From the IMG/VR virus record IMGVR_UViG_3300009506_000011, positions 20,187-84,186 of that record: a DNA stretch of 64,000 bases. One strand, given 5' to 3'. The DNA is from a virus. A program made the translations under genes and the position numbers. The notes below the pieces were generated by a model. It had not been told where the DNA came from, ran no database searches, and worked only from the letters and a program-made list of their open reading frames with translations. Below are positions 8,146 to 55,540 of the stretch, piece after piece (position 1 is the stretch's first letter; each line of letters starts with the position of its first letter).

Positions 8146-8574
8146 ATGGTCTTCATCCCGCCGTGTGGCGTCTCGCCGCTGTCCGCCTACGTGCTCGGAG
8201 CGGCGGTGCCAGCGCCAGACAGCCCCCCGGTGTACCGCGCGGACGCCTTCGACCTGGCGACCGGTGAGCTGGCCAGCGTGGTCGGCGGGATCGACCCCAC
8301 AGACGCCGCCGTGCAGGACGCGTTCACGATCCGGCGCGGCTCGGGCGCAGTCACCGAGGGCGGCCACGCGTTCGACGCGATCAAGCACAACGAAGACCAG
8401 ACGCCCCGGCGGCTGCAGGATGAGGCCGGCGTCATCTTCAAGCCCTTCGTTGAGCGCCGGGACGTGGACCTCCTTCGGAGCAGCACGAAAAGCGGAGCAG
8501 CCGATCACCAGGAGCTGACGGTCGAGTACTACAACCGCGCCCGAGCCCAGAAGGAGACGGTGAGGCCGGCATGA
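8146..8574 (+). CDS. Baseplate wedge / sheath initiator (Mu gp46-like)
   Basis: 142 aa directly upstream of baseplate J; IRRGSG motif. Confidence 0.6.
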   Translation: MVFIPPCGVSPLSAYVLGAAVPAPDSPPVYRADAFDLATGELASVVGGIDPTDAAVQDAFTIRRGSGAVTEGGHAFDAIKHNEDQTPRRLQDEAGVIFKPFVERRDVDLLRSSTKSGAADHQELTVEYYNRARAQKETVRPA

Positions 8575-10127
8575 CGATCGAGGCTCGAGCGGTCGAGCGC
8601 GCCTTCCCGCTCTACGACCTCGGCGCGCTCGAGGCGGAGATGCTCGCCAACTTCAGGGTGGGACTCCGCGAGCTGCCGAACCCAGACACCGGCCTGCCGT
8701 TCACAGAGCGCGAGATCGCCACCACGACGGCGCGGCTGTCGCGCTACTGGCGCGAGGCGAGGGCGCTGGATCTGGCCCTCCAGGGCGGGCAGCAGCGTGC
8801 GCTGTACCTCGCCGATCAGAATCGCATCGATCGCTCATCCTCGCTCTATCTCACCTCCCACCACGGGTCGACGTGGGGCGAGGCGCCGCTCGCGGCGGTC
8901 GGCGGTAGCGGTCTCGTCTCCGCCGTGGCCGAGCCGGGTGCGATCTTTCTCGGCAGCACAACGATCCCAGACCCGGGAGCGACGCAGTGCACCCGAAACG
9001 GCCTGACCTACCAGGTCCTCTTCACCGTTGTGACGCCGTTCGGCGGCTCGGCGGAGCTCACGCTGAAAGGCGTGGACACAGGCCAGGAAACGAATCTCAG
9101 CCCCGGCGACGTGCTCCAGTGGTCGGCCAACAAGCCGGGCGGCGCGCAGGCAACGTGCACGGTGACGCAGCAGTTCAGGGGTGGGGCGCCGAAGGAGAGC
9201 GCCGGCCAGTTTGCCAAGCGGCTGCTCGCGCGCATCGCGCACAAGCCAGCAGCGGGCAACGATGCGCAGATGCGAGCCTGGGCGCGCGCCGCGACCGTCG
9301 CCGTAGAGGACGCCTTCGTCTACTCCTGCGCCTTGCATGCCGGAACGACGGTGGTGTGCGTGACACAGAAGCGCGGCGGAGTCCCGGGTCCGGATGGCAG
9401 GATCCCATCGATCGGAACGCTCACGGACGTGACGCTGTACCTCGTACCGCCGGGGTCACCGGTGGTGCCGGCAAACCCGCTGATTCTGGTCACGCTGCCC
9501 ACCAAAGAGCCGGCCGCGCTACAGATTGGCCTGTCGCTGCCGTTCGGGCAGGCAGCCGGCTGGAAGGACTTCGAGCCCTGGCCGCCGGCGCTGTGCACCG
9601 TGTCCTCGGTCGCCTCCCCGACGGAGTTTCAGGTGCAGACGCTTTCCTCGCCGCCGGCTGGCGTACCGGCGCTGATGGCCTGGGTGGAGTCCCTGTCCCG
9701 GTTTGAGCGGCTGCAGGTGCAGTCCGTCACCATCGACAGCTTCCCCTTTTTCGACGTGGTGCTGAATGCGGCGCCGACGTCTCCTATTGTCGAGAATCAG
9801 GTCATCTCGCCCGCGCTGTTCACGGACGCCAGGCAGCTGCTCCTGGGCGAGACGATAGAGGCGTACTTCGACAGCCTCGGGCCGGGCGAGGTGGTGAACC
9901 TGGCCACCGACACGCGAGCACACCGAGCCTACCGTTTCCCAGAGCCGAACGAGGAGTATCCCCAGCGCGCCGGCGCGGGCATCCTGGCCTGGCTTCAGGA
10001 CGCCTTCGGCGCCGCGCTTGCTGACAGCACAGCAAGCGGCGGCGGCACGCCGCCTATTCCCGCAGACCCCAGCCTCGGACCGGCAATGATGGTGCCGGGC
10101 TCCGTCTTTATCTACGCGTTGACCTGA
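8571..10127 (+). CDS. Baseplate J-like protein
   Basis: GVDTGQETNL..GGAPKES..RLLARI..AAGNDAQMRAWA. Confidence 0.85.
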   Translation: MTIEARAVERAFPLYDLGALEAEMLANFRVGLRELPNPDTGLPFTEREIATTTARLSRYWREARALDLALQGGQQRALYLADQNRIDRSSSLYLTSHHGSTWGEAPLAAVGGSGLVSAVAEPGAIFLGSTTIPDPGATQCTRNGLTYQVLFTVVTPFGGSAELTLKGVDTGQETNLSPGDVLQWSANKPGGAQATCTVTQQFRGGAPKESAGQFAKRLLARIAHKPAAGNDAQMRAWARAATVAVEDAFVYSCALHAGTTVVCVTQKRGGVPGPDGRIPSIGTLTDVTLYLVPPGSPVVPANPLILVTLPTKEPAALQIGLSLPFGQAAGWKDFEPWPPALCTVSSVASPTEFQVQTLSSPPAGVPALMAWVESLSRFERLQVQSVTIDSFPFFDVVLNAAPTSPIVENQVISPALFTDARQLLLGETIEAYFDSLGPGEVVNLATDTRAHRAYRFPEPNEEYPQRAGAGILAWLQDAFGAALADSTASGGGTPPIPADPSLGPAMMVPGSVFIYALT

Positions 10128-19517: not shown

Positions 19518-20203
19518 TCTGCGCCATTTGCTACTCCCCAACTTCCTACTCCCCAACTTCCTCACTCAACCCCCTGATCGTCGCGGCCGTGCGCGAGTGC
19601 GCCACGGTCGCCGAGGCTGCCCGGTGGCAGCGCCAGAGGACAGCGACGAACCCCGAGATCGTCAGCGGCTGCAATGCCTTGTGCGAGCTGCCAGGCGCCA
19701 AGCCCGGTGACCTGGTCGAGTGCTTCGGCGATGACTGGCTGCAGACCGGCGAGCTGACTGGCGTCGACGACGTGACGCAGTACCAGTGCCGTTGGCTCAT
19801 CGAGCCGCGTCTGCTCGACGCTCGCGACCTTTTGCTGCGAGGGACCGAGCGGACGAGGGATCAGCTCCCGGAGCAGTACGGCGACGTCAGCGCCGCGTTG
19901 ACGGTCGTCACGCACGCGATCCTCAGCGGCGCACTGCATGACCGGGAGGCGGAGCTGCGCGAGGCATGGTCCGTCGTCGAGGAGGCATACCGGTGCGCCT
20001 GCCGCAGCACCGGCATGGCCAACGAGGTCATGCGTGAGCAAACTCAGCCGCGCGACGAGGTGCGCTCGGCTATGGCTGCGCTGCCCCGTTTGCAGTCGAT
20101 GTCGGCGCTGCTGGAGCGCGCGCTCAAGTGCTGCACCGCGGCGCTACGCTTGGCACTCGGCCGCTCCGACGCCGGCCAGCTCATTGCGGAGGTGGCGTCG
20201 TGA
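19514..20203 (+). CDS. Hypothetical protein
   Basis: ATGA-coupled; 15-bp tandem duplication at 19531-19560. Confidence 0.55.
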   Translation: MICAICYSPTSYSPTSSLNPLIVAAVRECATVAEAARWQRQRTATNPEIVSGCNALCELPGAKPGDLVECFGDDWLQTGELTGVDDVTQYQCRWLIEPRLLDARDLLLRGTERTRDQLPEQYGDVSAALTVVTHAILSGALHDREAELREAWSVVEEAYRCACRSTGMANEVMREQTQPRDEVRSAMAALPRLQSMSALLERALKCCTAALRLALGRSDAGQLIAEVAS

Positions 20204-21452: not shown

Positions 21453-22586
21453 CTAGCTGGCGTGCCACAGCAGCCGCGCCTGCGCCACCTCCGCTGGCGG
21501 CACCGGCCCGCCGATGTATCGGAATGACGCGGTCATCTGGGCTAAGCGGGTTTGCGTCGTTTGGTGCCGCCAGTGTATCGCGCGCCGCACCTTGCGCTCG
21601 CGCACCATCTCCCAATTTGGCGAATGCATCCGCGACGCCACCTGCGCCGGATGGGTGGGGGTCGTGCGCAGGCCGAGCCCGTTGGTCGCGGCGATGGCGC
21701 CAATCTTGTCGCTCAGCGCTGTCCCGATGCCGATCCCCTGAAAGTCTGGCAGCACGACCGTCCGGCTCGTGCGCCAGGTGTTTTTGACGTATCGGTGGGG
21801 GAATGGCATCACGCCGCAGAAGGCTGACGGGGCCCCGTCAATGAGCCCCATGAAGCACTTGGCAGACTTGTTCAGCTCGTGCGTCAGGTAGTGATGCGGA
21901 GCGAACCACGGCCAAGCCGCATGCTCGCAGCGGACGATCTCCAGCTCGATCCGGGGCCGGGGTTGAACCGACCTCCACGTCACAAGGCCGACGTGAGGCG
22001 CTGGGCGAGGCTCTAGGATCCAATCGGGCTGCAGCCACTCGACGAGGTCATCGTGGCAGGAGACTGCCACGAATCGCCGGTTTGACCGGCGCACGTGCTT
22101 TGCGACCGCAGCGCTGCCGATCTGGGCCACCTTCCGGTGGACGACGCTGGTGTACTCGTCGATTGCCACAAGCGGCCGCGGGTCGACCAGTGCTCTGGCG
22201 AGGTTGCACCGGAAGCGCTCGCCGTTGGACAGGACCCGGAACGGACGGAGCCACGCCGGCGGCGACGAGAAGCCCACAGACGACAGAGCCCTGATGACGT
22301 TGTCGATGGGCAATGCCTCATCAAACTCAGTGACCACGGCGCCGTCGCCCCAGTCGTAACCCTCGATCAGTGCATCGCCGAAGAGGTGCCGGGCAATGCT
22401 TGTCTTGCCGCAGCCGCTCGGGCCGGTAATGAGCCCGATGCTCCACGGCCTCGCGTCGAGGTCCACGTCAGCGCGAATCTCCACCACGCTTTCAGCGGCA
22501 GACGGGATGTCGTACATTCCCTCCACTTGCTTCACCCGGGCCGTTCGCTCAACGCCCGTCGCAAGCCTCAGATCAACGCGCGGCAT
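21453..22586 (-). CDS. ABC-type ATPase fused to a GNAT acetyltransferase
   Basis: Walker A GPSGCGKT, signature LSNGE, Walker B IDEY; C-terminal RTVVLPDFQGIGIG. Confidence 0.85.
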   Translation of the reverse strand: MPRVDLRLATGVERTARVKQVEGMYDIPSAAESVVEIRADVDLDARPWSIGLITGPSGCGKTSIARHLFGDALIEGYDWGDGAVVTEFDEALPIDNVIRALSSVGFSSPPAWLRPFRVLSNGERFRCNLARALVDPRPLVAIDEYTSVVHRKVAQIGSAAVAKHVRRSNRRFVAVSCHDDLVEWLQPDWILEPRPAPHVGLVTWRSVQPRPRIELEIVRCEHAAWPWFAPHHYLTHELNKSAKCFMGLIDGAPSAFCGVMPFPHRYVKNTWRTSRTVVLPDFQGIGIGTALSDKIGAIAATNGLGLRTTPTHPAQVASRMHSPNWEMVRERKVRRAIHWRHQTTQTRLAQMTASFRYIGGPVPPAEVAQARLLWHAS

Positions 22587-23191
22587 GGCCAGCCCAGCTC
22601 CTCCAGCTCGCGCAGCTTTTCGAGCTGGTCCTCTTCGCCCTCGCACTCGACGACGATCGCGAACTGCTTCTGAGCGTCGCCCTGCCTGCGTCGCTGCTTG
22701 TTTCGCTCCTGGCTCTTGTCTGGCTCAGGCTCGATCTCAAGGCTCAGCAGCTGAGCGAACTGCTCCTCCGCGAACCCCAGGTCGAGCGCGTCGCTGACGT
22801 CCAGCTCGATGGGGCGAAGCGCCTCTGCCAGCGCCTCGTCCGTCCAGCTGCCCCGGCGCGTGTAGAGCTGCACCGTCAGCCGGCGCGCCTCGGCCTCGGT
22901 GATCCCGTCGAGGTAGACCGCCGGGCCTTCGAGCAGTCCGACGTCCAGAGCGCAGGTCCAGCGCTGCTCGCCGTCGATGATGACGTTGCGCTCCTCACCC
23001 TTTTCGTCCGTGCGCCAGACGAGCAGCGCCTGCGAGCTGAGCCAGCCCTCCTTCATGAAGCCAGCCTTCATGCTCTCGCGCTCCAGCTCGGTCATGGTGT
23101 TGCCATTCCAGCCGTTGGGCCGGAGCTTCGTCAAATCAACGATCTCAGTCTTGCCGCGGACGTGCGGCTGTCGCTTGCGCTTCTTCGCCAT
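22568..23191 (-). CDS. ParB/Srx-like protein
   Basis: LRPNGWNGNTM..IIDGEQRW. Confidence 0.8.
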   Translation of the reverse strand: MAKKRKRQPHVRGKTEIVDLTKLRPNGWNGNTMTELERESMKAGFMKEGWLSSQALLVWRTDEKGEERNVIIDGEQRWTCALDVGLLEGPAVYLDGITEAEARRLTVQLYTRRGSWTDEALAEALRPIELDVSDALDLGFAEEQFAQLLSLEIEPEPDKSQERNKQRRRQGDAQKQFAIVVECEGEEDQLEKLRELEELGWPCRALI

Positions 23192-23441
23192 CTCTCCTCC
23201 GTCGAGCCATTGCTCGTACCGCCGCCAGCCGACGCTCGCGGTCGAGCTGCCAGCGGATCGGCGGATACAGCCTCGCCCATCGCTGTACCGTGCTAGCTGG
23301 CCAAGCTAGCTTTGCCATGTCGCCCCCGGCGCGGCGGATGGCGGCCATGACGAGGCGCCTCGCCGCCGCCTCCCCACGCCTCAGCCGCGCGCCGAGGGAC
23401 CGGCCGCTGTCAGCCACTGGAGCTGGCCAGGACGGCATCAT
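23145..23441 (-). CDS. Small HTH-like protein
   Basis: AIRRAGGDMAKL..STVQRW; coupled to neighbouring genes. Confidence 0.45.
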   Translation of the reverse strand: MMPSWPAPVADSGRSLGARLRRGEAAARRLVMAAIRRAGGDMAKLAWPASTVQRWARLYPPIRWQLDRERRLAAVRAMARRRRDGEEAQATAARPRQD

Positions 23442-24313
23442 GCCGCGCAGAGCCCCCACGCGACGCAGCTCGGCGTCCCCTCAAAAAACCAGTCGTGCTG
23501 CCGGCCGCCGCGGCTCGTCCGCGCCCAGCTCACCGCCTCGTCGATCGGCCGGTTGGTGCTCTTGATGTCGTCGTCGCGCCGGGCAAGCTCGGCCTTGGTC
23601 AGCTGCCGGGAGAACATCGTCGGCGGCGTCAACCCGAGGCTGTCGAAGGTCTCTCCCCGCGCCTCATAGCGAAGGCGCGCCGCCTCTTGGACGTCGGCCT
23701 CGAGCTGCCGGATCTCGTCGATGCGCGCGGGATCCAGGTCCGCTACCAGCCGGATCGCCGCCTTGCCAGAGCAGACACAGGGCCAGCAGCCGACACGCTC
23801 GGCGCCTTGCAGGTAGAGAGGGTTGGGCGCCAAACCGTGCCGGCGGTGGATCGCGATGACCTCGTCCTTCGTCCAGTCGATGATCGGCCGCCATACCTCG
23901 ACATCTCCCCACGCCAAACGACCGCGTGGCACGTCACGCTCCGGCAGCTTCGCGCGGCGGCGGGACTCCTCGCGACGCACGCCTACCGCGTTGACGACGT
24001 GATCATCAAACCGTGCCATCCAGGCCGCCATCGGCTCAAGCTTGAGTGTGCGCGTACACCATCTCATGCGGGGCGTACGGCTGGGAAACATGCCTTTCTT
24101 GCGGCACCAGTCGGCAAAGCCGCCGCCGGGCGAGCGCACCACGTCGATCTGGCCGAGCTTGTCCTGCAGCGGTCCCAGCACGTACTCGACGGTGGACGGG
24201 TGCTCCCATCCCGTGTCGGCGAAAACCCGCAGGTGCTCGATGCCTTGCTCCAGCAGGTAGAGGCACGCAGCGGCGCTGTCCTTGCCGCCGCTCACGCTCA
24301 CAATCGTGGTCAC
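23438..24313 (-). CDS. PAPS-reductase-family (CysH/DndC-like) protein
   Basis: SVSGGKDS PP-loop, FADTGWE, RWCT..LK, GVRREESRRR, NPLY..RVGCWPC. Confidence 0.9.
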   Translation of the reverse strand: MTTIVSVSGGKDSAAACLYLLEQGIEHLRVFADTGWEHPSTVEYVLGPLQDKLGQIDVVRSPGGGFADWCRKKGMFPSRTPRMRWCTRTLKLEPMAAWMARFDDHVVNAVGVRREESRRRAKLPERDVPRGRLAWGDVEVWRPIIDWTKDEVIAIHRRHGLAPNPLYLQGAERVGCWPCVCSGKAAIRLVADLDPARIDEIRQLEADVQEAARLRYEARGETFDSLGLTPPTMFSRQLTKAELARRDDDIKSTNRPIDEAVSWARTSRGGRQHDWFFEGTPSCVAWGLCAA

Positions 24314-26728: not shown

Positions 26729-27115
26729 ATGCCGGATTTTCAGCTCAAGCCCATCGGCTCCGAGGTGGTCGACTGGGACGATCCCGCGACGACGGACACG
26801 CCGAGCCGGCTCAACCCGGTGGTGCGCCACCCGCACAAGTATCACCGGATCTTCCGAAACTTTCCTCTCACGATCAAGGCCATCGTGGACGGCATCGAGG
26901 GACCCGCGGATGGCGCACTCGGTGGCCGGCTCTTCGCTTGGAGCTGGGTGGTCACGCGGGAGTCTGGCTACGCGCCGCCGATTCCGACGTCTGCCGGCTT
27001 CAGCAGCACGGTGGTTTTCCCGGCCTTCCACTTCCTCACCGGCCACTACGAGCTGCTGTGCTCGCGGCCTGACGGTGGCGCCGTAGGCGTCACCTTCGAG
27101 ATCGAGGACACCTGA
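26729..27115 (+). CDS. Probable virion structural protein
   Basis: TAGGCT-N5-ATG leaderless start like the other tail genes; beta-rich. Confidence 0.5.
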   Translation: MPDFQLKPIGSEVVDWDDPATTDTPSRLNPVVRHPHKYHRIFRNFPLTIKAIVDGIEGPADGALGGRLFAWSWVVTRESGYAPPIPTSAGFSSTVVFPAFHFLTGHYELLCSRPDGGAVGVTFEIEDT

Positions 27116-27804
27116 GACGGCCGGCCCCACTCATAGAGCGCAATGGCCAACGCCCCTTCAACGGTCAAGCCCGAAACGCGCCCCTGCATCGGAATGGTCG
27201 CGTAGCGAACCGGTAGTCCCCTGGGAAGCCCAGAGCTTTCCCCGCCGAGCAACAGCGTGTCAACTGTCTCGAAATCAACGCCATCGAGCGAGTTCAGGGT
27301 GCCGGTTTCCAACGCTAGCACCCCGTTACCGACTGGCAGTTTATCGATGCCAGCGACATCAACGCGCCCCTTCGCGCCGTAGAGGTTGCCGCTCAACCCA
27401 CCAGCGCACCTGTGGGTAAGCAAGCTGCGCACGCCGAACGCCTCACAGGTCCGAACGGCGCGGTTGAGGTTGCGGCCGACGCGGTGCAGCACAACGCGTC
27501 CCACGGTGCACATGGTCAGCAAGCGGACCAGCAAGCCGGTACGGTCACGGCCGTGAAAGCAGTGCACGAGCAGCGGCCTGCCAGCCGACAGGGCGACGCT
27601 AAGCGCTGCTTGGGCTCCAGCGCCGCTGTAGCTTACTGGACTCTTCCGGTAGCCAATGCCGGCGCTGAGGCAGGCGCGCTCGACGACTGGCCTTGGTCGT
27701 TGCGTCAGGTCCAGTACGGCCTGCCCACCGGCGGCAGCAAAAGCAACGATATCTCTGCGCCTTGGCAGAGCTGAGCGCCAGATCCCTGGTAGAAACTCCT
27801 TCAT
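27046..27804 (-). CDS. Cys-dependent (DSP/PTP) phosphatase fused to a SPOUT (TrmH/TrmL-like) RNA methyltransferase
   Basis: LLVHCFHGRDRTG; NLNRAVRTCEAFGV..LLLGGESSGLP..IPMQGRVSGLTVEGALAIALYE. Confidence 0.85.
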   Translation of the reverse strand: MKEFLPGIWRSALPRRRDIVAFAAAGGQAVLDLTQRPRPVVERACLSAGIGYRKSPVSYSGAGAQAALSVALSAGRPLLVHCFHGRDRTGLLVRLLTMCTVGRVVLHRVGRNLNRAVRTCEAFGVRSLLTHRCAGGLSGNLYGAKGRVDVAGIDKLPVGNGVLALETGTLNSLDGVDFETVDTLLLGGESSGLPRGLPVRYATIPMQGRVSGLTVEGALAIALYEWGRPSQVSSISKVTPTAPPSGREHSSS

Positions 27805-28562
27805 GTCGTTCCGTCTATGACTTCGCGATCTCCGCAGATTTCACGTAGCAGGTCTGGGTAATAAGCCAGCTCCCACTCAACACGCCCGAAGCCGGCACCT
27901 CGCTTGCCGCCTAGGCTCGCAACCCTGATCTTGCGGCGGTCAAAGAGTCCGCCTCGGGTCATAGCATAGGCAGGGTGGACAGGAAGCTTGTGCTTGTAGA
28001 GGTACGCGAAGACGTCTTCTGGCTGCCACCATCCAATCGGAGCGCAAGTGTGGGCCGTGGCGATGCCGTAGAACTTCATCCGCATGTTCCGGCCGCTGCT
28101 CTCCTCCCCTCGAATGCCGGATACGTGGCGCTCGCCGTAGCGTTCGCGAGCCAGCGCGAAGCCGCGTTCAAGCGTCCCCTTTGCATGCCAGCCGTCGGAA
28201 TCGCGTAAGCAATGCACGACGATCTCATCATACGGTAGCGGATACTTGCGCAGGAATCGGTCTCGGACCTCGCCACACTCCGGCGAGCATATGGGCTCAA
28301 CGCGCACCCAAACAAGGGGCAGCCGCACCGTCTCACGATAGAACAGGCGCCACGCCAGGTGCGCCGCTACCGTTGAGTCCTTGCCCCAGCTCACACCGAC
28401 GTAGCAGGGGCCTGACTGTGCGAACTTGTGCAGCTCCCGGATGGCCTTCTGCTCCTTGCGCTCCAGTGCCCTGAGCCGAGCGCGCAGGTGGTCCTCACGC
28501 TCGCACGTCTTCCAATGCGCGATGTCGTCTGAGCGATGTCGTGGCGAGGGAACAAGGGTCAT
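27801..28562 (-). CDS. cysH: Type IV-B-associated CysH-like (PAPS reductase family) protein
   Basis: VSWGKDS, SGIRGEESSGR, PIGWWQPEDVFAYL..LPVHPAY; in the csf operon. Confidence 0.85.
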   Translation of the reverse strand: MTLVPSPRHRSDDIAHWKTCEREDHLRARLRALERKEQKAIRELHKFAQSGPCYVGVSWGKDSTVAAHLAWRLFYRETVRLPLVWVRVEPICSPECGEVRDRFLRKYPLPYDEIVVHCLRDSDGWHAKGTLERGFALARERYGERHVSGIRGEESSGRNMRMKFYGIATAHTCAPIGWWQPEDVFAYLYKHKLPVHPAYAMTRGGLFDRRKIRVASLGGKRGAGFGRVEWELAYYPDLLREICGDREVIDGTT

Positions 28563-29499
28563 GCCGCGCTAACCACAATCCGACCAAAGCCGAAGGCCGT
28601 GCGTCCACCGAGCCCCGGCCCATTGGCAGCGCACCTCAGCAGAAACTCGCCCACGGCGTTTGTGTCCACCACCACGTGCCCAACCCAACCGGAGATCAGG
28701 CCATACTTACCGCCCATGTCGACGACCTCCTTGCGGCTGTCGTGTGAGATCACTTTGAGCATGAGGCTGTCCCGGTCGAAGCTGTCCACGCCGACGCGCT
28801 CGGGCAGCTCGGTGGCTAGGGCCGCGGTCAGGGACGTCTGCGTCGGCTGGATTCTCAGTGTGGCCCTGCCGGTGGACTGGATGACGACAGGCGTCAGGGC
28901 GTCGATCCGCAGCTTGCGATGACCTCGTTTGGAGACGCGCGGGTACCGCGGTCGCCAGCAGGCGCCGAACCCCACCTCGACGGGCGCCTGAACAGCTCCG
29001 CTCCGACGCGCCGCTGCTCGTACAGGGCCCGTGCGGCCTCGGCATCACGAACGTAGATTGCCCAGCCGATGCCGCGCCTGTGGGGCAGCAACGCCCATTC
29101 TGGCCAGCGCTGGTGCTGCAATCCGAGCAGCGTGGTCATGAGCCCATGAAGGGCGCGTGTGTTGCGGTGGTCAACCGGCCAGCGCGGCTCTGGCTCGATG
29201 AACAGCTCGAAGCCCAGGCCCGGCATGTAACCGGCATACGGCGGAGCTCCGAGCAGCCAAGGCTGACGCTTGCTGCAGCCTCGCTTCGCTGCGCACCATC
29301 TGGCATTGCGCGCCCGAGCACTTGCCACAGACCGCGGCGTCGCCAGCTTGGAACGCTGCCGGCGCTTCCCTTGGCAAACCGGGGCGCCGCAGGTCTTCTG
29401 GTGCTTGCCCCTGGGCACGAATGGGGCCTCGCAGACTGCGCATCGGTACGTTGTGGAGATGCCGTCGGCGGTAGTGTAAACCTCAGCTTGGGACTGCAC
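28559..29499 (-). CDS. cas6: Zn-finger-Cas6-like RAMP, frameshift near 28983
   Basis: AAGGAG RBS with GTG start; CAVC..CGAPVC; ALHG; LTPVVI; GWVG; C-terminal G-loop GLGGRTAFGFG; two ORFs join with +1 nt at a CCC run. Confidence 0.7.
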
Positions 29500-30133
29500 A
29501 GAGCTGCTCCTTGGCATGTGCCCAGTAGGGGTACGTCAACGTGCGGTAGGCCATCTGCGGGTCAGCTAGGCCCGGCCAGTCGGGTGGCAGTGAGCGAAGC
29601 GGGCGCCCGTCGCGCACCACCGGGAAGCCGTCCCACGGCTCGCATGGCTCGACCGACCAGCGGCGGACCTTGCCCAGTCCAACGCCGCGCTTCTTGCCGA
29701 GATAGCTGATGATGGCGAGCAGCTGCGCAATCTCGACGCGCTCGCCGATACACCACCAGCACATGGCGTCGTTCACCATGTGCTGCCCCTCGAGCGGCAA
29801 ACGATAGCTCTTGCAGGGGCCAGCGCTGATGAGGACCCGCCGAAGCTTCGCGTCGCCCATGGCCTGCGCCTCGGCGAGTGGAAAACGGCGGTTGACCCAC
29901 CGGCGCTCCACGCACTCGACCTCGGAGACGCTGAACGACGCGAGGTGAAAGCGGCCGTCTGGCTCGCGCTCAATCGGGATCTCGATAGGCTGCACATCGG
30001 CAGCGCTGAGCGGCGGCGGCATCCCGTCCCGACGCGCCACCGCAGCGGCAAGCAAGGCGTCGATGGCCAGCGGTCCGCCGGGGAGCGCGATGGGGCCCAG
30101 CAGCTCGGCGGTGATGATGAGCGGCTCAGGCAT
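29483..30133 (-). CDS. csf3: Type IV Cas5-like subunit Csf3
   Basis: PLIITAEL..LAIDALLAA..GPCKSYRLP..YLGKKRGVGLGKVRRW..LR.LP..PYW. Confidence 0.85.
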   Translation of the reverse strand: MPEPLIITAELLGPIALPGGPLAIDALLAAAVARRDGMPPPLSAADVQPIEIPIEREPDGRFHLASFSVSEVECVERRWVNRRFPLAEAQAMGDAKLRRVLISAGPCKSYRLPLEGQHMVNDAMCWWCIGERVEIAQLLAIISYLGKKRGVGLGKVRRWSVEPCEPWDGFPVVRDGRPLRSLPPDWPGLADPQMAYRTLTYPYWAHAKEQLCAVPS

Positions 30134-31112
30134 TGACCGACCGGAGGAACTCGGCGATGCGGTCCTTCCGCTTCGCCACGTGGCTCCTGAACAGCGAGCC
30201 TACCTGCTCAGCGAGCGCGGTTACGTCTACCGGGGTCAGCTCGGCGGTCGTCACGAAACGGACGTCCTGCCCGGCTACGACGCGGAGCAAGCCGTGTCCG
30301 GTGCCGCGTTTGCCGCCCACCCGAGCGTTGGTCAAAAAGGCCGCCATGGCCACCTGAAACGTATCGAACTGCAGGTCGTCGTAAACGGTTGCCTCGCATG
30401 CCCAGGAAAAGCAGCTCCCTTGTGCGACACGCTCAAAGCGGCGCGGCATCATGCTGGACTTCTCGCGCTCCCTCCCGACTGCGTCGCCCTCGGCGCTGGC
30501 TTGCTCTGAGGCGGTGAGCCGGCGGTTGATCTCGACCTGATCTCCGACCGGAAGCAGCCGACGCTTTTGCGGGCTGAGGGTCGGATCCATGCGGGTGCGC
30601 TGGACCTCCTCGACGTGGGCCCGGCAGGTGTCCAGCTCACCGAAGTGCTCGGCCGCGAATGCCAGGGCCCAGCTTGGGACGTAGCGAACCGACTCCTCGC
30701 AGATGAGCGTCGCGTCCTCGACGACGAGCTGGCCGGGAATGACGCGGTTGTCTGAGCAGCCACCGAACAGCGTCATGCTGGGCACGAGCTCGCACAGCTC
30801 CCGGTAGCGGTCCAGGTTGATGGTGCCAGCGGAGCCGCGGCCTGTGACCATGCCGCCGGCGAAAAGCAGGCGCAGCGCCGCCTCTGAGAGCTTCTCTTCG
30901 CCCAGCAGCTCAGCGGCCTCGAGAAGGGCATAGGCCGCTGCCTCGCGCATCCCGTGGCGCATCGTGTCGCCGGTGATGATCGGCACGTGGGCCCAGCCGC
31001 CGTTGTGCCGGAGCTTCCGGCGCATGATGACCGCCTCGTTGCCGATTGTTTCCTCGTGATGAGCAATCGGCAGCGCCGCCTCAAGCACGCACTCATATCG
31101 CTTCAGTCGCAT
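30126..31112 (-). CDS. csf2: Type IV Cas7-like backbone Csf2
   Basis: PIAHH..VPIITGDTMRHGMRE..LLFAGG..SMTLFGG..VGGKRGTGHG. Confidence 0.9.
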   Translation of the reverse strand: MRLKRYECVLEAALPIAHHEETIGNEAVIMRRKLRHNGGWAHVPIITGDTMRHGMREAAAYALLEAAELLGEEKLSEAALRLLFAGGMVTGRGSAGTINLDRYRELCELVPSMTLFGGCSDNRVIPGQLVVEDATLICEESVRYVPSWALAFAAEHFGELDTCRAHVEEVQRTRMDPTLSPQKRRLLPVGDQVEINRRLTASEQASAEGDAVGREREKSSMMPRRFERVAQGSCFSWACEATVYDDLQFDTFQVAMAAFLTNARVGGKRGTGHGLLRVVAGQDVRFVTTAELTPVDVTALAEQVGSLFRSHVAKRKDRIAEFLRSVNA

Positions 31113-31554
31113 CTCTACCTCTCTTATCCCAGCACTGCAGACATTGTCCCATCGGCGGAAGATCATAGGACATGACCAATCCGCACGTTTTGCATGTACG
31201 TTTCCTGCTTTCGGCAGCAAGCCGAGCCATGGCCATCAGCAGGCCGTACTCCCGCTCAACTAGGTCGAGCCATTCACCGGCAGCTCCCAGCTCCCCGACA
31301 GCGGCGCCGAGGTCAACCAAAGCCCGGCAGCCATCCTTGCCGAGCGTCGGAAGCTGCAGCCCCCGCTGCATCGCCGTCGCCCACTCGTCCGGGCTGGCCG
31401 TCCGTCTGGCGGCGCTCAGCATCCTGTTCTGGATTTGCTCCCAGTGCTTCAGCGGGCTGCCGCCGGCGGCAAGGTAGGCCCTTCGCAGCTCGAGCAGCAG
31501 CTCCACGGTCTTGGTTCGCAGGCTTTCGCGCTGCTTTTCGTCCAGCCTTGGCAC
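31093..31554 (-). CDS. cas11: Type IV-B small subunit (Cas11-like) with C-terminal CxxC-CxxC
   Basis: AAGGAGG RBS; helical KHWEQIQNRMLSAARR..EW..RGLQL; located between csf1 and csf2. Confidence 0.7.
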   Translation of the reverse strand: MPRLDEKQRESLRTKTVELLLELRRAYLAAGGSPLKHWEQIQNRMLSAARRTASPDEWATAMQRGLQLPTLGKDGCRALVDLGAAVGELGAAGEWLDLVEREYGLLMAMARLAAESRKRTCKTCGLVMSYDLPPMGQCLQCWDKRGRDATEAI

Positions 31555-32299
31555 GCTTCGCCTCCTTTTCTGCGGCCATGCGCCGCTTGACTTGGTCCTC
31601 GTCGCGCTGCGCCAGCCACAGCGCCAGCGCGAACCATCCGCCGCCGCGCAGCTGTCCGCCTTTGGCCTCGAAGCGCTGCAACGTCTCGCTGCACAGCTGC
31701 CAGGCGCGCGCCTCGTAGCGCCCCGTTTCAAGCTCGGCTTTGGTGGCGCCAGCAGTCAGCAAAGACGCCAGCTCGTCAACAAGCGCCCATCCAGCCTCGT
31801 CGCCGGGAAGCCGGATCCTGGTCTCGTCGAACAGCACCCAGCCGCCGGGACCAGGAGGGTTCACCGGGGTCCACGGCAACACGTGTTTCTGGCCGCTGTC
31901 GGCGATGGCCGCAAACCAAACGCCACGGTGTGGCCGCCGGAGAAACTCAAGCACGACGGGCTTCTCGCCCTTGCTCGCGTTCAGGTACCGCGGCTCAGCC
32001 GCCGCGTCGTACAGGTGGGAGTAGTTGCGGTAGTTGCCGCCGAGCTTCTTACCGGGGGCTGGGGGGCGCCCGGGGACCGGGGAAAGCCTGGCACAGAAGT
32101 AGACGCACGGCTCGCAGACCCATTTGCTCTCTGGACAGCGAACGCGGTTTTGGCCTGTGAAGGTTGAGCCGTTCCACAAGCTGACTGGCTGGCCCCGTGT
32201 CAGCGAGGCGGCGCAAAGCCAGCAGCGACCATCGGCCGGCGCGCAATCGGTGTGCATCGGAGCGCCGAGGTGGTGGTGCAGCAGGCGCGTGGCGCTCAT
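31313..32299 (-). CDS. csf1: Type IV large subunit Csf1 (Cas8-like)
   Basis: CWLC..STFTGQN..SKWVCEPC Zn finger; IADSGQKHVLPW.PVN. Confidence 0.85.
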   Translation of the reverse strand: MSATRLLHHHLGAPMHTDCAPADGRCWLCAASLTRGQPVSLWNGSTFTGQNRVRCPESKWVCEPCVYFCARLSPVPGRPPAPGKKLGGNYRNYSHLYDAAAEPRYLNASKGEKPVVLEFLRRPHRGVWFAAIADSGQKHVLPWTPVNPPGPGGWVLFDETRIRLPGDEAGWALVDELASLLTAGATKAELETGRYEARAWQLCSETLQRFEAKGGQLRGGGWFALALWLAQRDEDQVKRRMAAEKEAKRAKAGRKAARKPANQDRGAAARAAKGLPCRRRQPAEALGANPEQDAERRQTDGQPGRVGDGDAAGAAASDARQGWLPGFG

Positions 32300-32335
32300 G
32301 ACGGGCATCCTGCCAGCCGCTAGCGTGCTAGTCAA
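32300..32335 (-). promoter_or_regulatory. Leaderless promoter of the csf operon with GCTAGCGTGCTAG box
   Basis: TTGACT(32335-32330)-N17-CAGGAT, then 7 nt to ATG; 13-mer at 32319-32331. Confidence 0.7.
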
Positions 32336-42803: not shown

Positions 42804-43999
42804 TGGCCCGCGGCCGCATGCTTCTCAAGTCGCTGAGCCTTTGTGGCCAGCTTGCCGATCTGTCAGACGACACGGCACGACTGCTCTTCTGCATGTGCGT
42901 CCCACACCTTGATCGGGAGGGACGTTTGCAGGGCGATCCCCGGCGTCTCGCGGCGACCGTGTGGCCGCTGCTGCACGGTCCGCAGCCGACCGCACGAGCG
43001 CTGGCGGAGCTCGTTGAGCAGCGACTCGTCGCCGTCTACGACGATGAGCGCGGTCAGACTGTCGTTTGGTTCCCGGCCTTCGAGCGCTCACAGCCTGGGC
43101 TCCGACGGGACAGAGAGGCGGAGAGCAGCTACGGTCCGCCGCCTTCGTGCGAGCCCTCTGGTTTGGTGCCTGCGTGGCTGCGGGAGTACTCCGGACCTAC
43201 TCCGGAGCAATCCCGCGGTGGTCCGGAGTACTCCGGAGTTTTCCCGGAGTACTCCGGACCTACTCCGGAGCAACCCGAGCTAAGTGTTCGAAAGGTGGAA
43301 ACTCCGGAGTTTTCCCGGAGTACTCCGGGAGTGCTCCCGCCTAAATCAAAGGAAAGTAAAGGAAGGGAGGTTGCCGCGCGTGCGCGCGTAGCAACCGCCG
43401 CGCCACCACCACAACAGGAGCAGGCGGTCTGCGAAGGGTGCGACGATATCGCCGAGTGCGGTGCCGATGGTGTGCCAGTGGGATGGGCGGATGGGCTCTG
43501 CCCCGAGTGCCAGCGCCACGACGTGAGCCAAACCGCCGGCTACCTCCAAAGCATCAAGAACCAAGGAGCCAAGCCAGCGCCACCGTCCAAGCTCGGAACG
43601 GCACCCATGAACCCGGTGGCGCGCCAGCTGGCGGAGCATATTAGGACTCACCGGCGCTTCGATGGCATCGACGCTGGCGAGATCGGCAACAGCAACGCTC
43701 ACCTCGTCGAGACGGGTGGCAAGTCGCTAACCTGGCTGAAGGAGGCGATCGACGAGTGCAACCGGGACGCCGGCTCAGCCGCCGCCGCCAGGCGGCCCTG
43801 GTCCGACGATGTCCTCGCGCAGAAGCTTGGTCGCTACCTCTGGAAGGCAAGGCGCCCGGAGCCGAGCGATGCGGGAGAGGAGATCCACCATCACCCCCCG
43901 CTCTTCGTGGACAACGGACCGCGCCCGACCCCGGAGCAAACGCGGCAGTTTGCGGCCGAGGCGCTGGCGAAGTTCCGCGCCGGCAGGAAGGTGCCATGA
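42803..43999 (+). CDS. Phage replication initiator protein
   Basis: MARGRML..LSDDTARLLF..DREGRL.GDP; internal iterons; upstream of DnaB. Confidence 0.75.
   Translation: MARGRMLLKSLSLCGQLADLSDDTARLLFCMCVPHLDREGRLQGDPRRLAATVWPLLHGPQPTARALAELVEQRLVAVYDDERGQTVVWFPAFERSQPGLRRDREAESSYGPPPSCEPSGLVPAWLREYSGPTPEQSRGGPEYSGVFPEYSGPTPEQPELSVRKVETPEFSRSTPGVLPPKSKESKGREVAARARVATAAPPPQQEQAVCEGCDDIAECGADGVPVGWADGLCPECQRHDVSQTAGYLQSIKNQGAKPAPPSKLGTAPMNPVARQLAEHIRTHRRFDGIDAGEIGNSNAHLVETGGKSLTWLKEAIDECNRDAGSAAAARRPWSDDVLAQKLGRYLWKARRPEPSDAGEEIHHHPPLFVDNGPRPTPEQTRQFAAEALAKFRAGRKVP
43182..43339. repeat. Iteron cluster (probable origin)
   Basis: Multiple GGAGTACTCC / ACTCCGGAG palindromic repeats inside the initiator gene. 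Confidence 0.75.
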
Positions 44000-54028: not shown

Positions 54029-55540
54029 GTGATGGCCGCGCCGGCGCAAGCCGACTTCGGCGCCTGGCGCAAGGAGCCGCCCCGGAGCAAGCAGCTCGTA
54101 GAGGTCGGCCAGGAGCAGTTTCAGGCGTGGGTGCCACATCCCGGCCCGCAGCGGATGTTCCTTGCCTGCACGGCGGACGAGGCGCTTTTCGGCGGCGCTG
54201 CCGGCCCCGGAAAAAGCGAGTGTCTTCTGATAGATGCGCTCAAGCACACCCATCATCCGCGCTACCAGGCGCTGCTGCTGCGCCGGACCTACGACGAGCT
54301 CAAGAAGAGCCTCATCCGGCAAAGCGAGGCGCTCTACGACAGGCTGCCAGAAGCGAACCGGCCCACCTACAACAAGAGCGATTACTCGTGGACCTTTCCG
54401 AGCGGAGCCCGGATCGACTTCGCCCACGTCGAGCACGAGAAGGACATCGAGCGCTTCAAGTCGGCGGCCTACCAGTACGTGGCGCTCGACGAGCTGACGA
54501 CCTTCACGCGCCGCCAGTGGGACTACATCAGGAGCCGTCTGCGCTCCGCCGAGGGCATCCCGTGCCGGCTCCGAGCCGGCAGCAACCCAGACGGCCCTGG
54601 ACAGGAGTGGGTGCGGAAGCGATTCGCCCCCTGGATCTACAAGCCAGGCGAGCGGACGGACGAGTACCGCGGCCCCTACGCCAAGCCGGGGCAGAAGCTC
54701 TGGCTCATCCGCGGCGAGGACGACGAGGACGTCGTCGTCCCGAAGGGCACGCCGCACGCCATGAGCCGGACCTACATCCCGGCGCTGCTCACCGACAACC
54801 CAAGCCTCACAGAGAACGACCCTGACTACATCAGCCGCCTCATGCAGCTGGACCGGCCTACACGCGAGGCGCTGCTCAAGGGCAACTGGTTCGCCCGCGC
54901 CGACGCCGGCGACCTCTTCGACCGTGACTGGTTCGAGATCGTGCCGCGCGGCCCTGAGAGCCTCGCCGTCGCTCGCGTCCGCTGGTGGGACCGCGCCGCC
55001 ACCGAGGGTGAGAAGAAGACCAAGAACGACCCAACGAAGGCCGGCGGGCCAGACTGGACGGCGGGGGTGCTGCTCTCCAAGGACCTGTTCGGCATCTGCT
55101 ATGTCGAGGACGTGGAGCGCTTCCAGGGGCCGCCCCACGTTGTGGAGAGGCGCATCGCTGAGGTTGCCGCCGCAGACAAGAAGCGCTACGGCCACGTCAC
55201 CATCGTGCTGGCTGAGGACCCCGGTTCGTCGGGCAAGTTCGAGATCTCCCACTACATGCGCAAGGTGCTCAACCAGTACGAGGCGAGGTCGATCAAGGAG
55301 TCAGGGGACAAGGTGACGCGCGCCAAGCCCGTCTCGGCGCAGGCTGAGCAAGGCAACGTCAAGGTGGTCCAGGGGCCCTGGAATGAAGTATTCCTGCGAG
55401 AAGTGAACAGCTTCCCCCTCGGCAAGAAGGACCAGGTTGACGGTCTCAGCGGCGCCTACTCCGTGGTCGCGCCGGTCGAAGGCAGCTTCGGCGGTGGCAC
55501 GGGCGGCAGCTACGCCTCCGGCCAGACGGGAGGCTACTGA
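54029..55540 (+). CDS. terL: Terminase large subunit
   Basis: FGGAAGPGKS, LDELTTF, SNPDGPG, WDRAA, GDKVTRA, KDQVD. Confidence 0.93.
   Translation: MMAAPAQADFGAWRKEPPRSKQLVEVGQEQFQAWVPHPGPQRMFLACTADEALFGGAAGPGKSECLLIDALKHTHHPRYQALLLRRTYDELKKSLIRQSEALYDRLPEANRPTYNKSDYSWTFPSGARIDFAHVEHEKDIERFKSAAYQYVALDELTTFTRRQWDYIRSRLRSAEGIPCRLRAGSNPDGPGQEWVRKRFAPWIYKPGERTDEYRGPYAKPGQKLWLIRGEDDEDVVVPKGTPHAMSRTYIPALLTDNPSLTENDPDYISRLMQLDRPTREALLKGNWFARADAGDLFDRDWFEIVPRGPESLAVARVRWWDRAATEGEKKTKNDPTKAGGPDWTAGVLLSKDLFGICYVEDVERFQGPPHVVERRIAEVAAADKKRYGHVTIVLAEDPGSSGKFEISHYMRKVLNQYEARSIKESGDKVTRAKPVSAQAEQGNVKVVQGPWNEVFLREVNSFPLGKKDQVDGLSGAYSVVAPVEGSFGGGTGGSYASGQTGGY

Follow-up and report, generated by a model that had tools for sequence, protein, structure and literature searches.

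The phosphatase-SPOUT gene and its type IV-B operon

The 64,000-nucleotide stretch of DNA analysed here (the window) corresponds to positions 20,187 to 84,186 of the IMG/VR virus record IMGVR_UViG_3300009506_000011, an 84,186-bp phage genome from a marine sediment metagenome that has direct terminal repeats and was judged complete. Its minus strand carries a type IV-B CRISPR-Cas operon with the gene order csf1-cas11-csf2-csf3-Cas6-like-cysH-fusion. The last gene of this operon (27046..27804, minus strand) encodes a 252-residue protein, P0001, in which a cysteine-dependent CX5R phosphatase domain is fused to a methyltransferase domain of the SPOUT class, as identified from Pfam matches, an AlphaFold2 model and homologues. 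Relatives of this SPOUT domain were found in cysH/csf operons, where phosphoesterases of three unrelated folds accompany it.

In Pfam searches, residues 61–97 of P0001 matched Y_phosphatase3 (E 7e-6, above the cut-off) and residues 111–224 matched SpoU_methylase (E 2e-6; 28.6 bits versus a cut-off of 29.7). The NCBIfam matches to TrmL, TrmH and RlmB were weak and far under the equivalog cut-offs. PADLOC contains no model for the phosphatase-SPOUT protein, and a search of the ESM Atlas gave no usable match for it. Full-length homologues numbered 24, with identities of 43–70%, and the AlphaFold2 model calculated with these 24 sequences in the alignment has a predicted local distance difference test score (pLDDT) of 88 and a predicted template modelling score of 0.81. 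The homologues stop at approximately residue 228, so the remaining 24 codons (27046..27120, minus strand) form a non-conserved C-terminal tail, with pLDDT values below 60, which overlaps the 3′ end of a convergent open reading frame (ORF) at 26729–27115. A chance ORF was rejected as an explanation of the gene on the basis of the domain matches and the more than 100 homologues.

The original prediction, made from the DNA sequence alone, described an HCxxGxDRTG domain fused to a TrmH/TrmL-type SPOUT domain, encoded by a cas accessory gene that is ATGA-coupled to cysH in a somewhat less GC-rich part of the operon. This description was borne out. Pfam recovers both domains, and the phosphatase motif reads HCFHGRDRTG (residues 81–90). 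The ATG of the fusion gene (27804–27802) overlaps the TGA of the cysH-like gene (27803–27801), the ATGA being read directly at 27804–27801, and the upstream ORF belongs to the PAPS_reduct/PP-loop group. The csf1, cas11, csf2, csf3 and cysH-like genes were all assigned to the same operon with NCBIfam, PADLOC and Pfam. The lower G+C content is real and modest: it is 64.8% at 26–28 kb (2-kb G+C) versus ∼67% for the window overall, and the G+C content at third codon positions (GC3) is 0.73 in the fusion gene and 0.71 in cysH versus 0.79–0.85 in csf2, csf3 and most genes of the window.

The neighboring cysH-like gene of the Cas type (P0002; 27801..28562, minus strand; PAPS_reduct, E 3e-8) encodes a PP-loop protein in which the S-W-G-K-D-S motif is invariant in 16 of 16 homologues and the C-terminal cysteine is not conserved. 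CasCysH proteins are likewise reported to contain a PP-loop S-x-G-K-D-S motif and to lack the conserved C-terminal cysteine (PMC8175902). Next in the operon is a Cas6-like gene (28559..29517, minus strand; Pfam and PADLOC Cas6), which is split between two frames in this assembly. It is a single ORF in a related locus (L019), and in contigs from two further sequencing runs an additional G follows position 28981, which places the gene in one frame and indicates that the frameshift is particular to this assembly or strain.

The remaining genes, all on the minus strand, encode the type IV core proteins: csf3 (Cas5; 29483..30133; TIGR03116, E 1.5e-12; PADLOC typeIV_Cas5, E 2e-34), csf2 (Cas7; 30126..31220; TIGR03115, E 1.3e-10; PADLOC typeIV_Cas7, E 8e-40), a cas11-like small subunit (31093..31731; PADLOC typeIV_Cas11, E 5e-4, together with a switch of the GC3 frame) and csf1 (Cas8-like; 31313..32335; TIGR03114, E 2e-6; PADLOC typeIV_Cas8, E 2e-23). 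The true start of the cas11-like gene is probably internal, near 31560, and its product ends in a CxxC...CxxC zinc ribbon. The csf1 ORF stays open until 31313 and the GC3 signal shifts to the cas11 frame at ∼31590; either the two genes overlap by ∼250–400 bases or the tail of csf1 is non-coding read-through.

No CRISPR array was found in the window, and no helicase (DinG/RecD) or adaptation genes were present among the flanking ORFs scanned (∼17–38 kb). This identifies the locus as an array-less type IV-B system that is carried by a phage and has two extra genes, Cas6-like and phosphatase-SPOUT. It shares with known type IV-B systems, such as the Mycobacterium sp. JS623 complex and that of Skermania phage SPI1, the core genes, the absence, within the regions scanned, of an array, DinG and adaptation genes, and the location on a mobile element (PMC8175902, PMC7038947), and it differs from them in these two additional genes. 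Cas6 is rare in type IV-B, with 12 reported instances (PMC7038947).

Architecture of the two domains

The N-terminal part of P0001 (residues 1–101; 27502..27804, minus strand) is a minimal cysteine-phosphatase domain, as delineated by a PDB profile search and Foldseek. Its P-loop (residues 81–90; 27535..27564, minus strand) conforms to the HCX5R(S/T) motif, with Cys82 and Arg88 at the two defining positions. Cys82, Gly85 and Arg88 are invariant in 24 of 24 homologues of the fusion and in 13 of 13 csf-linked phosphatase domains, which represent two subfamilies. The best match of the family profile in the PDB (residues 4–103) was TpbA (4r0s/2m3v, E 3e-8), and PtpB, AtPFA-DSP1 and Siw14 were also retrieved. 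When the full-length model of P0001 was used in Foldseek, its N-terminal half matched a DUF442 phosphatase. The phosphatase domain modelled alone (pLDDT 93) matched DUF442 3gxh, AtPFA-DSP1, Siw14, SsoPTP and TpbA, with template modelling (TM) scores of 0.72–0.78 when normalised to the query, and its predicted core sheet, P-loop and subsequent helix superpose on DUF442, PFA-DSP, SsoPTP and TpbA. The domain shares the predicted central sheet, the P-loop HCxxGxxRTG and the invariant cysteine and arginine with the atypical CX5R phosphatases (DUF442, PFA-DSP/Siw14, TpbA and PtpB), and it differs from them in its size of ∼100 residues and in the lack of a clear general-acid aspartate. At the position equivalent to Asp105 of TpbA there is no invariant aspartate, and the GGD of most homologues is replaced by SGAGAQ in P0001; an aspartate that does not vary among the P0001 homologues is Asp32. 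The RNA 5′-phosphatases BVP and RNGTT (triphosphatase domain) were weaker structural matches (TM query 0.59) and are more distant relatives of the domain.

SpoU-class SPOUT enzymes are RNA ribose 2′-O-methyltransferases. The C-terminal half of P0001 is predicted to adopt the SPOUT alpha/beta fold, and its minimal SpoU/TrmH-class domain (residues 102–228; 27121..27501, minus strand) was defined from Foldseek, profile matches and motifs. Foldseek aligned the predicted domain with TrmL/YibK, TrmH (1v2x), RlmB (1gz0) and TrmJ at a probability of 1.0 (TM target not exceeding 0.69, root mean square deviation (rmsd) 2.7–3.0). The best match was TrmL/YibK 5co4_B (TM target 0.67, rmsd 2.7), and the scores for TrmL/YibK chains were 0.64–0.69. 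The profile matches of residues 103–226 were the TrmH structures 1zjr, 7edc and 1v2x.

All three SpoU motifs are kept across 44 distinct SPOUT domains of the family. Motif 1 of P0001, VGRNLNRAVRT (residues 109–119; 27448..27480, minus strand), contains Asn112-x5-Arg118, and in the HMM (hidden Markov model) alignment to TrmH the segment N112-L-N-R-A-V-R118-T aligns with N-L-S-A-I-L-R-T of TrmH 1v2x (N-x5-R-T). We take Asn112 and Arg118 to be the counterparts of TrmH Asn35 and the catalytic Arg41. The motif 1 arginine is invariant in 44 of 44 domains. Motif 2, GGE(S/T)xGLP, is conserved in the family and aligns to motif 2 of TrmH, and motif 3, IP...(S/C)(G)LTVEAALAIALYEW, is conserved within the family; the reference motifs of TrmH are GxExxG and IPMxGxxxSLNVSxAxxIxLYE. 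With TrmL/YibK, TrmH, TrmJ and RlmB the domain thus shares the predicted fold, the arginine of motif 1, GxE..G of motif 2 and the hydrophobic motif 3 helix ending in YE. It differs from these enzymes in its xLTVE motif 3, in its scores, which lie far under the equivalog cut-offs, and in its length of only ∼125 residues, without any of the RNA-binding extensions that TrmH or RlmB have at the N or C terminus. A DNA methyltransferase was rejected as an identity of the domain because it belongs to the SPOUT class, and a generic housekeeping TrmL/TrmH was rejected on family-specific scores and gene context.

Distribution of the SPOUT family and its phosphatase partners

A word-index protein search retrieved ∼45 relatives of the protein. 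When 1.84 billion cluster representatives were searched exhaustively with an HMM, 376 matched at E ≤ 1e-3, of which 77 reached E ≤ 1e-10 and 35 reached E ≤ 1e-30. The Cas-type SPOUT proteins are a small, distinct family; generic SpoU proteins scored ∼40–50 bits in the same search, ∼10–100 bits under the family. In tblastn searches of 50,697 phage and 72,556 plasmid records with the fusion protein, no homologue was detected apart from a remote Jannaschia phosphatase, and megablast of the operon against the phage records returned nothing. Scans of genome, viral and metagenome contigs yielded 68 loci, which were annotated with iterative HMMs seeded from the window proteins, and linkage was counted over 48 non-redundant SPOUT loci. 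A cysH-like gene is present in 42 of these 48 loci and in all 42 it is directly adjacent to SPOUT, in either order; csf3 occurs in 36, csf2 in 31 and csf1 in 21. The loci without cysH or csf genes are on short contigs of a few kb or contigs that end within the region. The linkage is seen in bacterial- and archaeal-type loci alike. Several matches labelled as metagenome-assembled genomes (MAGs) are the same contigs as IMG/VR records (L001 = L009, L003 = L013, L005 = L016), and the organism names are therefore not to be taken as hosts. The linkage is close to complete: wherever the contig allows, the 48 loci show cysH/csf genes, and the family is rare and, within this sample, confined to these operons, in contrast to TrmL, TrmH and RlmB, and is often fused to a phosphatase. 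The outcome named in the original prediction as its refutation, a fusion that is widespread and has no link to csf genes, is thus not what the census shows. SPOUT is also the most conserved protein between loci; in L017, for example, its identity is 53%, compared with 29% for csf2, 30% for csf3 and 25% for cysH. In two further proteins, P0047 (206 residues) and P0052 (199 residues), the Cas-type SPOUT is followed without a break by the C-terminal part of Cas6 (Pfam Cas6, E 4e-12) or by a zinc finger. Whether these proteins are genuine fusions or products of frameshifted gene calls, SPOUT adjoins a Cas6-like gene at these loci.

The phosphatase is attached to SPOUT in several ways. In 29 proteins, including the clade of the window protein, the CX5R domain is fused N-terminally, and in 12 it is fused C-terminally, as in P0034, both halves of which are clearly homologous to those of P0001. 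At four loci a CX5R domain of a second subfamily, with the signature HCWKGSHRTG, is encoded by a separate neighboring gene. In 13 loci a 120-residue HAD protein is encoded directly upstream of SPOUT (L004:5962-6426, L045:403-780, L053:1003-1371 and 10 more). Its motif is intact (DxDGT; KIAAIDFDGTI ... IDDR), and its nearest structure is 2obb (E 2e-11). Fusions of HAD and SPOUT occur in both orders (L014, L035, P0063). One locus contains a calcineurin-like metallophosphoesterase gene (E 9e-17) between cysH and SPOUT (L012:9238-10002). In the loci examined, phosphoesterases of three unrelated folds are thus fused or adjacent to SPOUT and never to cysH. By sequence comparison, the phosphatase partner appears to be replaced non-homologously across SPOUT loci; the SPOUT-domain tree is too poorly resolved for counting independent phosphatase gains. 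The association of three unrelated folds with one methyltransferase is the strongest evidence that a dephosphorylation step would be functionally coupled to methylation. A CX5R phosphatase can also occur alone: in one type IV-B locus without SPOUT, a CX5R gene lies between csf3 and cysH (L098:5540-6007).

The prevalence of the module was estimated from a search of IMG/VR anchored on Cas-type CysH, which gave 80 loci, or 76 after removal of redundancy. Among these 76 viral loci, 73 contain csf genes, five contain SPOUT (two of them with CX5R) and one contains CX5R alone. SPOUT is therefore not needed for the core function of type IV-B, and the SPOUT/phosphatase module is an optional accessory in a minority of phage type IV-B systems. 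In ∼15 of the 76 loci an amino-methyltransferase of the D12 class or N6_N4 type is encoded either in the operon slot that separates csf3 from cysH or in the immediate vicinity of the operon (L115:5159-6007, L123:3406-4206, L139:5207-6004, L151:5106-6023, L172:5090-6004, L175:4925-5938 and others). There is no overlap between these loci and the SPOUT loci, which suggests that type IV-B operons have a variable methyltransferase slot; in other loci the csf3–cysH slot is filled by unknown proteins. Seven viral type IV-B loci (L122, L130, L132, L140, L142, L145 and L158) contain two cysH-like genes, one of them longer (∼375–430 residues). When 401 Bacillota genomes were sampled with Csf2 as the anchor, SPOUT was present in two of four close loci, and sampling of 1,200 genomes with a Csf2 profile gave a handful of loci. 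Skermania phage SPI1 has csf1-cas11-csf2-csf3-cysH and no SPOUT. The window Csf2 was too divergent to recover plasmid type IV-B loci with tblastn, and the diversity of the Csf2 alignment and of the broad CysH alignment precluded pattern scans.

Public contigs were also compared over 26900–29600. In a 6.8-kb contig from another study (run X3), flanks that are ∼94–95% identical to the phage join position 27113 to 28565 across 1449 unlike bases. These 1449 bases (<85% alike) replace the 1451 bases 27114–28564, which are exactly cysH and the fusion gene. The exact two-gene replacement between flanks of ∼95% identity looks like the exchange or divergence of cysH and the fusion gene as one cassette, and this is consistent with their lower GC3. 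Run X2 left 27173–28537 uncovered, but none of its contigs spans this interval, and the run was therefore not used as evidence.

Elsewhere the window contains a large terminase gene (54029–55540) and a baseplate-J-like gene (8571–10127), and no close isolate of the 84-kb phage was found. A gathering scan detected no Rfam families in the 64-kb window. A second gene of the PAPS-reductase family (23438–24313; E 8e-24) lies 3.5 kb from the Cas-linked cysH, in a cluster (21453–24313, minus strand) with a ParB-like ORF and an ABC-ATPase-GNAT fusion, which probably forms a separate nucleic-acid modification cluster. At 43167–43348, seven overlapping copies of a 21-nucleotide direct repeat (GGAGTACTCCGGA...) are clustered and may represent an iteron or regulator-binding array.

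Proposed role in RNA modification

We favor the interpretation, at a probability of roughly 55%, that the fusion protein is a module for RNA phosphate removal and ribose 2′-O-methylation that works with the Csf complex and CysH. The reasons are the chemistry of SpoU enzymes, the recurrent phosphatase, the RNA binding by Csf (PMC7937560) and the precedent of Pnkp/Hen1. Because a phosphatase partner recurs, the methyl acceptor may first have to be freed from phosphate. The CX5R domain would strip a phosphate from RNA, and the SPOUT domain would then methylate a ribose 2′-OH with S-adenosylmethionine as the donor. The most economical target would be a terminal 3′-phosphate, 2′,3′-cyclic phosphate or 2′-phosphate, which would block the 2′-OH; a 5′ tri- or diphosphate is an alternative. 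The fusion protein and the adjacent PP-loop CysH-like enzyme would act on RNA that is held or selected by the Csf ribonucleoprotein, and the outcome could be stabilisation of guide RNA or protection or repair of RNA against host RNases. The substrate may be a guide-like RNA bound by Csf, for which HEN1-like stabilisation would be attractive where Cas6 leaves a 2′,3′-cyclic phosphate, or it may be a damaged or target RNA. The catalytic signatures appear to be under selection: the SPOUT arginine of motif 1, GGExxGLP, the IP...LTVEAALAIALYEW motif and the cysteine and arginine of CX5R are all retained.

The logic of an end phosphatase combined with a ribose 2′-O-methyltransferase is shared with Pnkp/Hen1 and Pnkp1-Rnl-Hen1 repair and with the methylation of small-RNA 3′ ends by HEN1. 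In Pnkp/Hen1 repair, the 3′ end passes from phosphatase to 2′-O-methyltransferase to ligase, and methylation by Hen1 renders the RNA immune to re-cleavage, which has been termed ‘repair with immunity’ (PMC4411300). In the two known complexes of this type the phosphatase domains belong to different superfamilies (PMC4411300), a feature also seen in the SPOUT loci. The likeness is one of logic and not of homology. Hen1 is a Rossmann-fold methyltransferase, whereas P0001 contains a SPOUT domain and is partnered by Csf proteins and the CysH-like PP-loop enzyme.

Several observations weigh against this interpretation. No phosphatase is seen at about half of the SPOUT loci, SPOUT is present in just five of the 76 CysH-anchored viral loci, and the Cas6-like gene beside the fusion is frameshifted in this assembly. 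Neither the operon nor the neighboring genes were found to encode a 5′-kinase, an RNA ligase or a Hen1-type methyltransferase. Motif 3 of the SPOUT domain reads xLTVE versus SLNVS in TrmH, with threonine and glutamate in place of asparagine and serine. In the structural comparison of the model, the CX5R domain reaches a TM score of only ∼0.5 relative to the targets with partial target coverage, and it may therefore be a minimal core: at ∼100 residues it has two thirds of the length of a dual-specificity phosphatase (DSP) domain, stops after the P-loop helix and is missing the C-terminal helices of a normal DSP. No conserved general-acid aspartate is evident in the 24 homologues and the PDB profile alignment. 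Finally, the nearest solved CX5R relatives act on phosphotyrosine or inositol pyrophosphates, not on RNA. The original prediction pointed out that HCX5R phosphatases include RNA 5′-triphosphatases; among the solved relatives of the domain, DUF442, PFA-DSP/Siw14 and TpbA are nearer than RNA triphosphatases. The analysis lends no support to the link that it suggested with tRNA or the phage tRNA-like RNAs. Its proposal of RNA end processing and 2′-O-methylation has gained comparative support from the three phosphoesterase folds and the retained TrmH motif, and it is on these grounds that we infer such a role.

These relatives leave room for a phosphatase substrate other than RNA, i.e. a nucleotide or polyphosphate signal, a pyrophosphate or adenylated intermediate made by CysH, or a phosphoprotein, so that the domain would tune signalling or drive CysH. 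This explanation is in line with the proximity of the domain to the PFA-DSP/Siw14 inositol-pyrophosphate phosphatases, TpbA and PtpB. It also agrees with a suggestion, noted in PMC13676074, that CasCysH serves to AMPylate targets or to produce second messengers. We nevertheless consider it unlikely, as all three phosphatase folds are, in the loci examined, tied to SPOUT and never to cysH, the accompanying SPOUT belongs to a class that methylates RNA ribose, and the setting is a Csf complex for which RNA binding is reported (PMC7937560). The SPOUT domain could alternatively be a stand-alone tRNA/rRNA 2′-O-methyltransferase resembling TrmL, TrmH or TrmJ, which would be independent of Csf, reside in the operon only for co-expression, act on host RNA or phage tRNA-like RNA and, for example, blunt anticodon nucleases. 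The closest solved folds are indeed tRNA enzymes (TrmL 5co4 and TrmH 1v2x/1zjr/7edc), and the weak NCBIfam matches are to TrmL, TrmH and RlmB. The proteins, however, fall well short of the TrmL/TrmH equivalog cut-offs and form their own small group, their ∼125-residue domain has no TrmH/RlmB-type RNA-binding extensions, cysH/csf adjacency holds in bacterial- and archaeal-type loci alike, and ARAGORN finds no tRNA gene in the 64-kb window, which together make this explanation rather improbable. It would be most surprising if one or both domains were catalytically dead and served as RNA- or S-adenosylmethionine-binding or structural subunits of the effector complex. The truncated phosphatase core, the departure of motif 3 from TrmH and the marginal values of both Pfam scores would fit such a role, but the nucleophilic cysteine, the P-loop arginine and the SPOUT arginine are invariant down to ∼25–40% identity, and the swap for intact HAD (DxDGT) and metallophosphoesterase genes argues that activity is selected.

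A broader and more tentative idea is that some type IV-B systems serve as RNA-scaffolded RNA-modification machines and not as interference complexes. The Csf filament would select or hold RNA, and the phosphatase would clear a blocking terminal phosphate (e.g. a 2′,3′-cyclic phosphate that Cas6 or a host RNase has left behind). The Cas-specific SPOUT would then 2′-O-methylate the RNA, with another, ATP-dependent modification contributed by the PP-loop CysH. The amino-methyltransferases that occupy the same slot elsewhere would be alternative modification heads. The product could be a nuclease-resistant guide or an ‘immunised’ RNA that aids the phage against host RNA-targeting defences.

The accessories named in the type IV literature searched are cysH and, in some loci, an ADP-ribosyltransferase or N6-methylase. 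A SPOUT/SpoU methyltransferase or phosphatase is not named there as a type IV-B accessory; the search comprised type IV reviews and surveys, a census of CRISPR-linked genes, the 2025 classification update, a report on type IV-B in Bathyarchaeia viruses and a 2026 type IV-C paper, with few subscription papers and supplements covered, so an earlier mention is possible. According to a 2026 paper, the biological function and complete architecture of type IV-B are still unclear (PMC13676074). Type IV-B is the one widespread CRISPR-Cas subtype of unknown function, and until now the CysH-like enzyme was the sole general clue to it. The SPOUT proteins add a second enzyme family with a predictable chemistry, RNA ribose 2′-O-methylation, whose members are, as far as sampled, restricted to these operons and recur in company with a phosphatase. 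Phages carry many type IV-B loci with a variable ‘modification slot’, and SPOUT and its phosphatase point to RNA modification as the output of type IV-B, which provides a concrete biochemical lead.

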